This document shows positions 2 to 32,215 of a stretch of DNA of 64,000 nt, one piece after another (position 1 is the stretch's first letter; each line of letters begins with the position of its first letter). The DNA is from Candidatus Woesearchaeota archaeon (lineage in GTDB: Archaea; Nanobdellota; Nanobdellia; Woesearchaeales; JABIAG01): contig JABIAG010000001.1 in assembly GCA_018653365.1 (NCBI GenBank), positions 64,001 through 128,000 on the forward strand. Direction: 5' to 3'. The notes beneath the pieces were generated by a model that had not been told where the DNA came from, ran no database searches, and worked only from the letters and a program-made list of their open reading frames with translations. Position numbers and translations under genes: made by a program.

Positions 2-3000
2 GTAGAAACTTTTAATCTAATAATTGATAATAAAAAACCAGACATAACTATATATAAAAATACAAACATCTTTGATGACTTTACTGAAACAAACGCAGGT
101 CCACCTCAAGAATTACTAACAAACCCCAGTGTAAAATCCTCAGACACATTTACTTTAAAATGTAGAGACATAAGACAAAGAGTGCCCCAACCAAGCGCAA
201 CAAAATGGTTCTCTCAATCAGACCCTGCAACAGGAAGCTCAAGCGTTGATACAATTTCATTAGATCGAACAGTGTTCCGAGATCAAATAATCATTGTACC
301 AATATATTCTTATGAAGTAATGATAAGCCAGAAAGTTGGAAGTTGTAATTATTTAACTGAAGTATACGAATCTGGAAACAAAATAGCAGAATCTCTAATT
401 TTAAAAGATTCACAAATAACCGTAAACCAATTCAATAATTTCATATTTGAAAATCTAGAAATGAACGGAGAAAAATCATACACTTTCAAAATCAAAAAAC
501 AAGGAACTTGTACTGGCGTAATTAATGGCGAACCAGATTCAAAAGTAGTTTTAGCAGACGATTCACATCTTCCAACCGAAGCAGGATGCCCTGAAATATT
601 ATACAGCAAAACAAACGTAGCAAGCCTAACACAGTTCATAGAAGGAATTGATGATTTTAGTTTAGGCACAACAAGAGTTGTTTATACCAGTGCAACTGAC
701 TTAGAAGGCAATGTAAATGCAATAAATTTCAATTTTCAAGACAAAGTAGATAGTAAAGCACCAGTAATAGGAGAGCCAGTAATTAGCGTACCAAACGATC
801 CTGATAATTACATACAATCATCCGTAGACGTTACAGGTGTAAGTGTAACAGTAACAATAAAAGATGAAAAAGCACTATTAACCCCAAAACCAACTGCCTG
901 GATAAGAGTAATAAATTATACGAATCCTGCAGAAGCAGGACTGCCAAAGCACTGGAATCAATACCCCTTAGCAACTACAGATGCATTCTTAGCAGATCAA
1001 CCAATGACTTACACAGGAACAATAACCCTACAACCTGGACGAAATAAAATATTTATTTTTGCACAAGACGACATTGGAAGAATACAACAAAAAGAGGCAA
1101 CACTAATTTATTATGTGGATGAAATAGCACCCAACTTAGCAGAAAACGGAATATTTATTGAAAATACAGATCCGTTAGGAAGCAATGCAGATTATATTCC
1201 TGCTGAGAATAAATTCATATTAGAAAAGAAAACAAATTATACCTTCACAATAGAGGGTGAAGATGAAAATTATACTCGTTTGATTAGTTCAATCAGGGTT
1301 GAATTCCCTGCAAATCCAGGATTCGATTTCGACCTAGTAGAAGATGATAATATTGTAACTCTTAACACATTTGAAGAAAACTTAACTCAAGAGGTGGGAA
1401 GTTTCATACCTGTTGGAGATGCATACACCTTTAATGTACTCATAACAGACGCCGCAGGAAATGTTAAAACAGAAACATTCAATTTTGAGGTCGTAGATAC
1501 GTCTGCACCAGTAATATTAAGCGCAGAAATAATTTGTACTGACAGATGTGTAGATGAAAGTACAGCTACCGATCAAATATACCGACTTGGAAAAAGACCT
1601 GCAATACATACAATACGAGTTGTGTTTGACGAACCAGTAACTAGAAATATAGAAGAATTTGAGTATTTAGTAAAACGTGGAAGTTGGCAATCAAAAGCAC
1701 CCCCTGCAATCGCACAATTCAGAGATGCAGACGTAGCTAAAACAGAAAGGTATTTCCAATTTACCATTTTTGGAAGTCCTGACGAAACAGAAGCAAAAAT
1801 AGAATTACGAGGAATACACAGTGCAGATTCAGCAACGCCCTTAACATTTGATTCAACAGAATACTTTACACTAATAAAAGATTTAGAAGTACCTTCACAA
1901 CCAACAATTGAAACTCCTCAAGACAACACGTTTTATCAAACTGGTCAAACAGTAAGTTTTAGAGGAATAGCAAGTGACTCAAAATATTTAGAAATAAGAC
2001 GAACCAACGAACTAGATTTCTTTAATGATGATCCGTTTGATCTAAATCCCAAATTAAATCCAAACACTATAAGCGTATCAGAATCAAATATAGTATATGA
2101 CGCAAGTCAAATTTGCATACCTTATACTACTTTGTTAACAAGAATAGCAGATAAACAAACATTGCACGATAATAGTGGAAGTTACCTCTCAATTGGAGGA
2201 AGTACATATTATTACCAATACACGTTTGACCAAACACAAACCAAACCATACGACCAAACAGCATGTGGCGCAACAGAGGATACAGATGTCTACCACACAA
2301 TCAATTTGGTCGGGGGACCAGCAACACTTCCAACACAAAATGGAGTTGTAAACCTAGACATATATACAAATGAGGACCCTGCAGGATTATTCGTCTTTAG
2401 CAATGACACAACCCTGCTTCCACAAGATACTTATGTGTATGAATTTGTAGCAATAGACTCAGTAGAAAATAAGGCAGACCCAAAAGAATTAACCTTCTAT
2501 GTAGATAAAACCCCTCCTTCATTTCATATAACCCCCTTACATAATTCCCGTTCAGACCTAAAATATGATGCTACCGTAAACATTTTTGAAGACTTTGACC
2601 TAGATTCAATAGGACAATACAACTCCTTGGATTTGTCAACAGTAGAATTAAATTTAACTAATGCCGTGACTAGCAAATCATTAATCATAACAGATATAAC
2701 TCCCGGAAGCCAAACATACACTCCTTTCGCAGGTGCAATTCAACCCTCAACAAACGTACAAGTACAAACTGAAGGAGAAATAACACATATAAGTATTCCA
2801 AAAGAGGTTTTTAGAGAGTCAGACATAATCGCACAAAGAGAGTGTACTGGAAGTACAGGAAATTCAGACTTGGTAAAAATCCAGGTAATTAATGCTGTTG
2901 ACAAAGCAGGAAATGCAGCAAGCTCGATTCCTAACCTATTTACTTACGATCCTTGCTCATATGGAATAACAATAAATCTAGATCAAGCATTACAAGGAAG

Positions 3001-30187: not shown

Positions 30188-32215
30188 ATGAAAAGATTAA
30201 ACAAAAAAGGACTTGAAATCGCAGACCCAATGTTCGTAATAATCACAATAATCGCCTTAACAATAGTTTATATGAATGTTGGATCATCATTACCAGAAAC
30301 AAAAATTGGGTCCAAACAAACAGATATCTTTGCAACAGTACAGGCAGCTCAAAACGAAATGTTCTTTTTAGACCTGGGAGCAAAGTATGCAGGTATAAAC
30401 TCAATTTATTCTCTTGCTTTAAAGGGAGGAATTCATGAAACAAACTTATGTGGAAATTATTATGGGAAAAATCTTTGGAACTACAAAAATCCTGAAGACG
30501 AATACGCAAGTTGTTTACCTAATATCAAAACTGAATTAAAAAACGAGTTTGAAAAAACTTACAACTCTTTTCTAGCTAAAAATGGTGAAAATATAAATTA
30601 TAAATATTTTCTAACTGCAACGCCCACATTAGAAATAAGAGGAATCTCTTTAGTAAACAAAGAAAAAAGTATTGAACCTGAAAGAAAATATTCGTACAAA
30701 CCAACCACAACACAAAAGTATAATTACAACTTTGAAGCATACAATAAAATTAACGAATTTATCACAGTATTAAATGAGAATTGCAACGAAAAAGAAAACA
30801 TACAAGGTGGCAGCGAACTTACACTTTGTGTGGTAGATACATTATCAACATTTAATGAAGAACTAGACGATTTCATCGAGATTAAAGCAGTTTATCCAAC
30901 CGATTCTGATTTAGATTTAAACTTTCAACAATATCTCAAAGAATTAGAAAGAACCGGTTATGAAGAGTGTTATTTTGATTTTCCCAAACTTAGCGAAGAA
31001 TTTCCAATAACATACAAAATAGAAAGTTTTGTCGAAGAAAAAAGTTATTCAGAAATAAGTTTGTTATATAATGAAAACAAGGTCCGAACTTCTAATTCAA
31101 ACCTGATTTTTTTTATGATGAAAGCCAACCGAGAAAATAAATTTGAAAAATATCCCGGGAAAGAACTAAGTTATGATACTTCAAAAACTGAACTAACGTA
31201 CGATTTCGAGGGAGGAAAACGAACAGAACCCACAGGGCTAGACTTTTTTAAAATAGATAAAAATAAAGCAGGATTTATACCAAAAAAAGAAAAAACCGAT
31301 TATCTAACTTATCTAAAAAATAGGCCATGCAGTTATGAAAACAGAATGTTCATATTCGAATTAAAAGAAAAAGAACTGTACCCTAAAAAGGGAGAAATAA
31401 TTTACTCTTTTGCTACCTATGTTGAAGATAAAAAAGAACCCTTCATATCAGCAGTTAAAGTAGAATCAAAAGAATTTGACGAAGGCACACTACTAATACG
31501 CTGGAAACACACCAATTCATTAGATCTAATGAACTATTCAATATTTGTTGATGGAACATTAGTTAAAAAAGTAATCCCCTGGAAAGATACAAAAGTATAT
31601 GATTCAATTAATTGGGAATATGGAGATGAAAAACCGTTTAATACCTGCAAATTAGATAATAATGATGCATTCAAAAAGTGCGTTTACAGTTTTGGCAACA
31701 CCTTCCAAGATCTGAACACTTATTATTTTAAAGACAGTAAGGAATGGGTATATGTATTAAACGGATTAGAAGACAAAAAAACCTACGATATTGTGATAAA
31801 AGCAACAGATGATGATGGAAACACTTTTGAAACTGAACAAAAACCAGGAATAAGCAAAGATACCCTTCCTTTTGCACCAATCGAATTTCAACTAACTAAT
31901 GATCCACTAAGAACACATCCACAAACACAAATATACACTGGTGTGGTTGGAGCGCCTCTATTTACTTTATTTAACATGGATGGCACTCTTGGACTTGAGA
32001 GTATGGAGTTTAAGTTCGTTCATTCTAGCATACCCCTACAAACGTTTAATAAGGATAATTTAGACACGTATTACCTGTTCGGAGCATCAGTTCCCAGCTA
32101 TCATTTAGGAGTTCCAACACATTATCTGATAGTTCAAAAAGATCCCTCCTTAGACAATTTAAACTTGTTTGTAGAAGAAATGGGATATAAAACACAAACC
32201 ATCCCTGGAGAATAA
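30188..32215 (+). CDS. Large class III signal peptide protein with FN3-like domain
   Basis: MKRLNKKG|LEIADPMFVIITIIAL; LLIRW...YSIFVDG...GLEDKKTYDIVIKATDDDGN is FN3-like. Confidence 0.75.
   Translation: MKRLNKKGLEIADPMFVIITIIALTIVYMNVGSSLPETKIGSKQTDIFATVQAAQNEMFFLDLGAKYAGINSIYSLALKGGIHETNLCGNYYGKNLWNYKNPEDEYASCLPNIKTELKNEFEKTYNSFLAKNGENINYKYFLTATPTLEIRGISLVNKEKSIEPERKYSYKPTTTQKYNYNFEAYNKINEFITVLNENCNEKENIQGGSELTLCVVDTLSTFNEELDDFIEIKAVYPTDSDLDLNFQQYLKELERTGYEECYFDFPKLSEEFPITYKIESFVEEKSYSEISLLYNENKVRTSNSNLIFFMMKANRENKFEKYPGKELSYDTSKTELTYDFEGGKRTEPTGLDFFKIDKNKAGFIPKKEKTDYLTYLKNRPCSYENRMFIFELKEKELYPKKGEIIYSFATYVEDKKEPFISAVKVESKEFDEGTLLIRWKHTNSLDLMNYSIFVDGTLVKKVIPWKDTKVYDSINWEYGDEKPFNTCKLDNNDAFKKCVYSFGNTFQDLNTYYFKDSKEWVYVLNGLEDKKTYDIVIKATDDDGNTFETEQKPGISKDTLPFAPIEFQLTNDPLRTHPQTQIYTGVVGAPLFTLFNMDGTLGLESMEFKFVHSSIPLQTFNKDNLDTYYLFGASVPSYHLGVPTHYLIVQKDPSLDNLNLFVEEMGYKTQTIPGE

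Follow-up and report, generated by a model that had tools for sequence, protein, structure and literature searches.

The window analysed here is a 64,000-nt stretch of the genome of Candidatus Woesearchaeota archaeon (assembly GCA_018653365.1), corresponding to C1:64001–128000, where C1 is contig JABIAG010000001.1. The genome of 1.09 Mb comprises three contigs (C1–C3) and is 94.9 % complete; its RadA neighbours assign it to Candidatus Woesearchaeota (GTDB Nanoarchaeota, Woesearchaeales). At its 5′ end the window contains most of the gene for a giant surface protein and, directly after this, at 18232–32215, an array of 18 genes on the + strand (g01–g18) whose products resemble type IV prepilins. 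Positions given without a contig name are those of the window. The features of the region are listed below.

2–18235, + strand: giant surface protein, 3′ 6,077 codons; the reading frame is open at the 5′ end of the window
18232–18741, + strand: g01, pilin-like protein of 169 amino acids; the start overlaps the stop of the giant gene; N-terminus of the family: [KR][GA]Q, then a hydrophobic helix
18716–19735, + strand: g02, protein of 339 amino acids, probable start at 18731; the most conserved member, with the N-terminus K[GA]..E.QFNW followed by a helix
19738–20301, + strand: g03, pilin-like protein of 187 amino acids; Q+1 invariant, K−2 and E+6 nearly invariant
20298–20849, + strand: g04, pilin-like protein of 183 amino acids; Q+1, E+3, G+6 and four Cys invariant
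20821–20946, + strand: g05, about 40 amino acids, essentially a hydrophobic helix; a 39-amino-acid gene in an independent assembly
20943–21737, + strand: g06, pilin-like protein of 264 amino acids, KKG leader; paralogue of g07
21739–22623, + strand: g07, pilin-like protein of 294 amino acids, NKA leader; paralogue of g06
22620–22772, + strand: g08, 50 amino acids, KKG leader and helix; homologues of 51–52 amino acids at the same place in relatives
22769–23143, + strand: g09, protein of 124 amino acids, N-terminal helix, 6 Cys
23146–23290, + strand: candidate internal promoter gap; three exact copies of ACATTTATATA at 23146, 23213 and 23280
23343–23609, + strand: g10, protein of 88 amino acids; KGQG leader, helix of ~30 residues, head of ~45 amino acids with six invariant Cys
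23617–23898, + strand: g11, protein of 93 amino acids, tandem paralogue of g10; 1–3 copies in relatives
23974–24915, + strand: g12, protein of 313 amino acids, KKKG leader; one 'DCGG' module in common with the giant
24918–25481, + strand: g13, protein of 187 amino acids, QKG leader, 14 Cys
25487–28039, + strand: g14, protein of 850 amino acids, KKRG leader, 48 Cys; one 'DCGG' module in common with the giant
28029–29030, + strand: g15, protein of 333 amino acids, GTG start, NKKG leader
29023–29541, + strand: g16, protein of 172 amino acids, N-terminal helix; no K/R-G/A leader in its own genus
29538–30179, + strand: g17, protein of 213 amino acids, NKRG leader
30188–32215, + strand: g18, protein of 675 amino acids, NKKG leader; the last array gene

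Analysis of open reading frames (ORFs), gaps and hydrophobicity bears out the preliminary description of the array, made from the letters of the window, as 18 same-strand, mostly overlapping or abutting genes encoding an N-terminal helix, preceded in 16 of them by a prepilin-type leader. Fourteen of the 18 junctions overlap or are no more than 10 nt apart; the only sizeable gaps are those of 199 nt before g10 (23144–23342) and 75 nt before g12. In every product there is a single strong hydrophobic segment, located at the N-terminus, and a leader that contains Lys or Arg and ends in Gly or Ala is present in all except g05 and g16. Homologues of g16 from other genera do have such a leader (KK[GA]). 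Sixteen of the genes encode at least 88 amino acids, and the remaining two ORFs, of 41 (20821–20946) and 50 amino acids (22620–22772), are both kept in position and form among relatives; the first was also called by an independent gene caller. Many of the head domains contain conserved even numbers of Cys residues (pairs and sextets), as expected for extracytoplasmic domains.

The gap upstream of g10 contains the 11-mer ACATTTATATA, which includes a TATA-like box and recurs with a period of 67 bp, the last copy lying ~55 bp before the g10 start. The three copies are all that occur in the 64-kb window, against 0.21 expected. This arrangement before g10 and g11 is a candidate repeated archaeal TATA/BRE (transcription factor B recognition element) internal promoter.

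The giant gene extends beyond the window. It was first described as encoding a membrane protein of more than 6,077 amino acids whose stop codon overlaps the first array gene (ATGA), and this is confirmed: the overlap lies at 18232–18235, and the full gene (C1:59697–82235), which starts 4.3 kb ahead of the window, encodes 7,512 amino acids. The protein has only one N-terminal and one C-terminal hydrophobic segment. The latter, a transmembrane (TM) segment at residues 7350–7368, is followed by a Lys/Pro-rich tail of ~140 residues, taken as cytoplasmic. Its designation as an immunoglobulin (Ig)-repeat protein stands only in part, in that the Pfam family Big_13 is matched above the cut-off (77.9 bits, in two stretches), but matches to Big_3_3, Big_3_2 (a third Ig-like family) and TSP3 are weak or without a significant domain, and internal repeats are few, with one duplication of ~700 amino acids. 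A Cys-rich module of ~40 amino acids, here called 'DCGG', is present three times in the C-terminal region (residues 7100–7200, window about 17300–17600), once in g12 (residue ~219, window ~24630) and once in g14 (residue ~381, window ~26630); it matches no Pfam family. In relatives, a segment of g14 matches the C-terminus of the large upstream protein.

The leaders of the array were compared with those of the rest of the genome by means of a greedy gene call, which gave 1,106 genes, 259 of them with an N-terminal hydrophobic segment. The motif [KR][GA] precedes the hydrophobic segment in 12 of 17 locus genes and in 26 of 242 genes elsewhere (odds ratio 20, Fisher p=7e-8). A looser scan places ~20 of roughly 35 credible leaders of the class III type in C1:56–96 kb, a count in which two genes lying ahead of the giant are included. 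No other feature is as well conserved within families as the predicted cut site. K-[GA]-Q is kept family by family across relatives with 20–30 % overall identity, and the leaders thus behave as class III (prepilin-type) signals, as had been proposed, with cleavage itself predicted. Gln+1 never varies in the g03 and g04 families and is the prevailing residue in those of g01, g10 and up2, a conserved gene upstream of the giant (C1:58118–59617). In a pooled profile of 141 sites from ten relatives, chosen by requiring [KR][GA], position −3 is Lys or Arg in 81 %, position −1 is Gly in 67 % and Ala in 33 %, and position +1 is Gln in 34 %. The hydrophobic stretch of ~20 residues begins right behind the motif, most members have no AxA-type site after it, and the profiles of g03 and g04 are alike over the leader and helix only. 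Surface proteins encoded nearby on the other strand of the same window have ordinary Sec-type signals, which indicates that the array leader is a distinct class and not a general export signal.

Conservation of gene order in relatives, suggested as a check in the preliminary description, was found in all ten Woesearchaeales genomes compared (40 kb each). The order g01-g02-g03-g04-g06/07-g10/11-...-g16-g18 is kept throughout, in arrays of 15–24 ORFs, 11–18 of which have a leader. Upstream there are one or two large surface proteins, ranging from split proteins of ~1.9 k and 1 k amino acids to a protein of 5,682 amino acids, and these are preceded by a homologue of up2 in five of the ten genomes. 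The array is followed by RPA in nine and by YdjM in six, and both genes also lie downstream of g18 in the present genome. In one genome of another order (0.74 Mb) only a core is left, consisting of up2, a large surface protein, g01, g02, a second large protein, g03 and g04.

Taken alone, g02 is found in 35 of 41 order-level relatives, and its profile detects 265 of 301 sampled Nanoarchaeota genomes (at least 90 % complete, drawn from the same-order and same-class rows of the phylum), mostly in single copy. Among 1.84 billion library representatives, the g02 family accounts for 2,127 clusters at 50 % identity, all of ~320–390 amino acids. With such a distribution, near-universal, in single copy and inherited vertically, a core envelope structure seems likelier than an accessory adhesin island.

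The window contains no ATPase, TadC or peptidase gene, as first noted. A search of the genome reveals that A24 peptidases, a FlaI/TadA-type ATPase and a platform-like protein are encoded outside the locus. One A24 homologue lies at C1:211173–211997 (Peptidase_A24, 47 bits); the other, at C1:41227–42273, 17 kb upstream of the giant gene, is longer and combines A24 and Arc_PepC domains. Both retain the two catalytic Asp motifs. The type IV filament (T4F) ATPase is encoded at C3:37586–39856 (T2SSE 52 bits; FlaI E 6e-35; TadA E 7e-33), adjoining a gene for a platform-like protein of 747 amino acids with eight hydrophobic segments (C3:39858–42101), whose match to T2SSF is weak (E 1.3e-3) and spans profile positions 4–125 of 125. 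This is the sole such pair in the genome. Two weak T2SSE hits were considered as a second T4F ATPase and rejected; they correspond to a PIN-ATPase-KH protein and an ABC ATPase. An archaellum was likewise set aside, as no archaellin (Arch_flagellin) match is present in the genome. The T4F ATPase is 55–60 % identical over ~750 amino acids across families in which g02 is ~25 % identical or undetected.

The combination of an ATPase/platform pair on C3 with a distant array is the layout reported for DPANN archaea in a 2026 census, in which ATPase and platform genes are adjacent and pilins lie elsewhere (PMC13705601). An earlier census (PMC4858521) was unable to assign cognate pilins to one clade of nanoarchaeal ATPases. 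The ATPase has an N-terminal extension of ~290 amino acids (the relatives compared include G045, G048, G104, G122 and G189), and some relatives have two to three further ATPase paralogues at ~30 % identity. Just downstream of the platform-like gene, at C3:42536–43330, is an ORF of 264 amino acids with a weak match to LAGLIDADG_3.

Predicted structures are available for several of the array proteins. The AlphaFold2 model of g02 (16-row alignment; pLDDT 85.5, pTM 0.79) consists of a 54-residue helix (12–65), beta strands at 71–153 and 180–232 and a C-terminal helical bundle, a predicted lollipop shape like that of a type IV pilin. For g18, the model in the ESM Atlas is of low confidence, and the nearest rows from outside DPANN are of Ig/fn3 type at TM-scores of 0.22–0.28, which is no fold match. 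Complex prediction with the soluble parts of g02, g03 and g04 speaks neither for nor against binding, one control scoring nearly as high as the complex. Relatives of the array proteins are labelled 'hypothetical' in public sources, and in the ESM Atlas they fall in DPANN hypothetical clusters restricted to Nanobdellota. No published description of the array was found in the literature searched.

We consider it probable, with a good deal of doubt remaining, that the 18 genes, with at least one gene upstream of the giant (up2), represent the prepilin-type substrate set of the single T4F machine of the genome, forming a multi-subunit filament or pseudopilus. The 18 array proteins and up2 would be inserted in the membrane by the N-terminal helix, and one of the two A24 aspartic peptidases would cut after [KR]-[GA], often exposing Gln+1. 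The FlaI/TadA-type ATPase and the 8-TM platform-like protein on C3 could then pull out the mature subunits and stack their helices, the product being a T4F-like fibre or a short pseudopilus. Within such a structure g01–g04 may act as a priming or tip module, analogous to, and not homologous with, GspH-K or FimU/PilVWX. The products of g10 and g11, which lie behind the only internal promoter-like gap, may provide the bulk subunit, with g10 as the candidate major subunit. The large, Cys-rich g12, g14 and g18 could be modular pilins which display extra domains. The giant probably acts at the same surface site as the array, for example in contact with hosts or particles, because it belongs to the same packed gene string and has a Cys module in common with g12 and g14.

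The proposal of one multi-subunit pilus or tip complex with minor pilins is thus consistent with the class III leaders, the machinery genes and the gene order, while filament assembly is a step that we infer from them. Neither a genome lacking prepilin peptidase and assembly ATPase nor a loss of gene order in relatives, both named beforehand as contrary to the proposal, is what was observed. A similar distinction applies to the suggestion that the giant adhesin works with the pilins in host attachment: the overlapping, conserved neighbouring genes are observed, whereas coupling and attachment are predicted. The idea of cargo-bearing minor pilins is plausible for g12, g14 and g18, but no cargo domain in them matched a known family.

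The Epd pilus of Methanococcus maripaludis ('system 1') is encoded by an 11-gene locus which includes several minor pilins and a dedicated peptidase, EppA. Gln+1 is a hallmark of EppA substrates, and the Pfam family Class_IIIsignal is built on the Q-x-S-x-E motif. As in this system, the array leaders have Lys or Arg at −2 and Gly or Ala at −1, with frequent Gln+1. Again as in Epd, several pilin-like genes, including a very small major-pilin candidate, form one co-directional string, and the genome has a FlaI/TadA-type ATPase, a polytopic platform-like protein and A24 peptidases. Unlike Epd, the array has no match to Class_IIIsignal, Pilin_N or an NCBIfam pilin family, comprises at least 18 genes compared with ~5 pilins, and lies in line with the gene for a giant surface protein. 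Its machinery is located outside the locus, with one 747-aa platform gene instead of two, and its families seem to be confined to Nanoarchaeota/Nanobdellota. EppA is of the 9-TM type and is encoded in the locus; the second A24 homologue here, which is longer and has Arc_PepC, may belong to this or to another subtype. The 2026 census reports that DPANN carry system-1-type pilins and scattered machinery (PMC13705601).

Comparison of g01–g04 with the bacterial minor (pseudo)pilins GspH-I-J-K and FimU-PilV-W-X, together with PilY1, reveals a number of parallels. The four genes are consecutive, deeply conserved and unequal in size (169, 339, 187 and 183 amino acids), the largest has an added helical domain, a very large adhesin is encoded alongside, and an acidic residue is present near the mature N-terminus (E+3 in g04, E+6 in g03). 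In contrast to the bacterial proteins, this residue is not at +5; g03 and g04 show no detectable sequence similarity to solved pilin or pseudopilin chains, no structural match was retrieved for the g02 model, and the giant, unlike PilY1, has its own C-terminal membrane anchor. The likeness is an analogy of layout and not membership of these groups. A pilin-type N-terminus on large domains, as in g12, g14 and g18, also occurs in the modular pilins PilB and PilC of Streptococcus sanguinis (PMC8179133) and in Sulfolobus bindosome proteins, from which the array proteins differ in that their grafted domains match no known family and include the 'DCGG' module.

The SPEARE protein of Ca. Nanohaloarchaeum antarcticus has 5,385 amino acids. 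In common with SPEARE and with SiiE of Salmonella, the giant is very large, beta-rich, Ig-like and extracellular, and like SPEARE it comes from a small-genome symbiont lineage. It differs from both in being anchored by a C-terminal TM segment with a Lys/Pro-rich tail, in its few sequence repeats and in its variable size in relatives.

A number of results weigh against the reading of the array as filament subunits. Searches of Pfam and NCBIfam with all 18 proteins give no hit at E≤0.1, genome-wide scans for Pilin_N, Class_IIIsignal and Arch_flagellin find nothing in the locus, and profiles of g03, g04 and g10 retrieve no pilin chain from the PDB at E≤5; the rows for g10 are insignificant defensin-like and carboxypeptidase-inhibitor-like Cys-knots only. 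Foldseek and VIA searches with the g02 model return no pilin structure, only generic helical-bundle rows for the C-terminal part, the N-terminal half being barely tested. For g10 the model (pLDDT 68, low confidence) consists of a helix at 9–40 and a small six-Cys head that is poorly predicted. Any N-in signal anchor would likewise have positive charges ahead of its TM helix. The N-terminus of the giant is as much Sec-like as class III-like, and the large proteins at its position in relatives have clear Sec-type signals. No machinery genes occur within ~40 kb of the array in the ten relatives, and the ATPase and peptidase are present in five genomes without detected g02, so that co-occurrence gives no support. 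Finally, other pilin-like genes at C1:530–534 kb and C1:640 kb are possible true filament subunits.

The main rival is a membrane-retained envelope scaffold, in which helix-anchored proteins, cleaved or not, and the giant would build a fixed coat or pseudo-periplasmic layer with no extended filament. The idea resembles that of the Sulfolobus bindosome, in which proteins with class III signals do not make up a long pilus. We regard it as rather unlikely. The wide, single-copy and vertical distribution, next to the housekeeping genes RPA and RadA, is what a core component of the envelope would show, and it fits the filament reading too. A scaffold would account for the large size, the many Cys and the multidomain make-up of many members, which would be uncommon among filament subunits, and for the absence of machinery in cis. 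The conserved [KR]-[GA]-Q and the acidic residue at +3 to +6 in g02–g04 are, on the other hand, tied to peptidase recognition and helix–helix assembly, and the helix-only g05 and g08 and the 88-aa g10 with g11 resemble filament subunits. No S_layer_N protein was found in the genome, which leaves room for another envelope organiser, but a gene elsewhere in it does encode a homologue of an S-layer-like protein. A link between the array and a surface (S-) layer was considered in its own right and rejected: in one distant genome an S-layer-like gene comes after g04, but here its homologue is 550 kb away, and S_layer_N, as noted, was not found.

A short pseudopilus for uptake or secretion (of DNA, nucleotides, lipids or proteins), similar to that of the type II secretion system (T2SS) or Com, with the giant as an independent adhesin sharing the operon, appears improbable. 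Such pseudopili are composed of GspG-K in T2SS and ComGC-GG in Com, and the conserved four-gene core and small major subunit of the array mirror this composition. The genome is small (1.09 Mb), DPANN are described as relying on hosts for lipids and other metabolites, and there is one ATPase only, with no retraction ATPase seen. Against this, the at least 15 different subunits far exceed those of any known pseudopilus, and the large modular members hint at the display of binding domains. No channel, ComEC-like or secretin-like partner was seen near the array, although none was specifically looked for. It is very improbable that these are ordinary signal-anchored or Sec-secreted surface proteins, clustered by shared regulation and prepilin-like merely through the positive-inside rule, for although no member matches a pilin family and [KR][GA] also stands close to an N-terminal hydrophobic segment in 26 genes elsewhere in the genome, the invariant Q+1, G/A−1 and K−2 of several families across order-level divergence, the hydrophobic stretch right after the motif with mostly no AxA-type site, the strong clustering (p=7e-8) and the classical Sec signals of the neighbours all argue otherwise.

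Within the filament reading, a more far-reaching version can be put forward tentatively, as something possible rather than expected. In this version the array is the missing subunit set of the single Nanoarchaeia T4F machine, with at least 15 different pilin-like proteins of otherwise unknown families forming a lineage-specific surface organelle. The g01–g04 core, which would predate the split between orders, would prime assembly, and coupling to the giant membrane-anchored fibre would make the whole an apparatus for host contact or exploitation. Taken as a probable T4F subunit locus, the region stands out for its size, the conserved order, the new families and the in-line giant.

DPANN archaea form an abundant, largely uncultured group whose cells are believed to live attached to others, and little is known of the molecules that make the contact. 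Surveys report that they have an ATPase and platform, with pilins scattered or unidentified (PMC4858521; PMC13705601), and this locus is a concrete candidate: an ordered set of ~18 prepilin-like genes, of lineage-restricted and unannotated families, beside the gene for the cell's largest surface protein. Should the products be processed and assembled, they would constitute a new T4F subtype of unusual subunit complexity, and g02, g03, g04 and g10 would be named targets for proteomics, antibodies and cryo-electron tomography in enrichment cultures. Even if they are retained in the membrane, the array defines a core envelope module of the class.

Several further observations concern the surroundings of the array. 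The upstream neighbours at C1:44101–56385 encode radical-SAM/SPASM proteins, a peptidase U32 homologue, two methyltransferases and an unannotated protein of 1,271 amino acids, and might form a maturation or modification cluster that has nothing to do with the array. Among them, 7 kb upstream of the giant (C1:50878–52578), is a protein of 566 amino acids with a match to Glu_cyclase_2 (E 3.8e-4; 20.4 bits, cut-off 22.3). If this is a true glutamine cyclotransferase it could turn a processed Gln+1 into pyroglutamate; equally, it may be a generic beta-propeller.

Elsewhere in the genome, at C1:530167–533649 and C2:106154–106699, there are four pilin-like paralogues with a common N-terminus of the type NKKG-x-LELSVNAIV and no Pfam match. 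Weak matches to Pilin_N occur at C1:640232–640438 (in an ORF of 149 amino acids) and C1:611321–611479 (in an ORF of 415 amino acids). All of these are further candidates for filament subunits, as alternatives to the array.

A second surface-protein locus is present in the window at 39290–52153, on the minus strand. It encodes a PKD-domain protein of 330 amino acids with a KKG and helix leader, two proteins of 720 and 2,145 amino acids with Sec signals, and a protein of 675 amino acids with Gly-Thr-Asp-Gly repeats. A further protein, of 236 amino acids, corresponds essentially to the C-terminal module of the giant alone, with TSP3 repeats, a TM segment and a Pro/Lys tail.

Many public records of metagenome-assembled genomes bear the title 'uncultured Methanosarcinales archaeon', and one the title 'Acidobacteriota bacterium', where RadA similarity and synteny clearly point to Woesearchaeota; the taxonomy in these titles is probably mislabelled. 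The public assembly collection has the exact g04 protein in 70 of its blocks, in seven of them on contigs of more than 1 Mb. The organism has thus been assembled many times, and may exist in an enrichment or at a recurrently sampled site.

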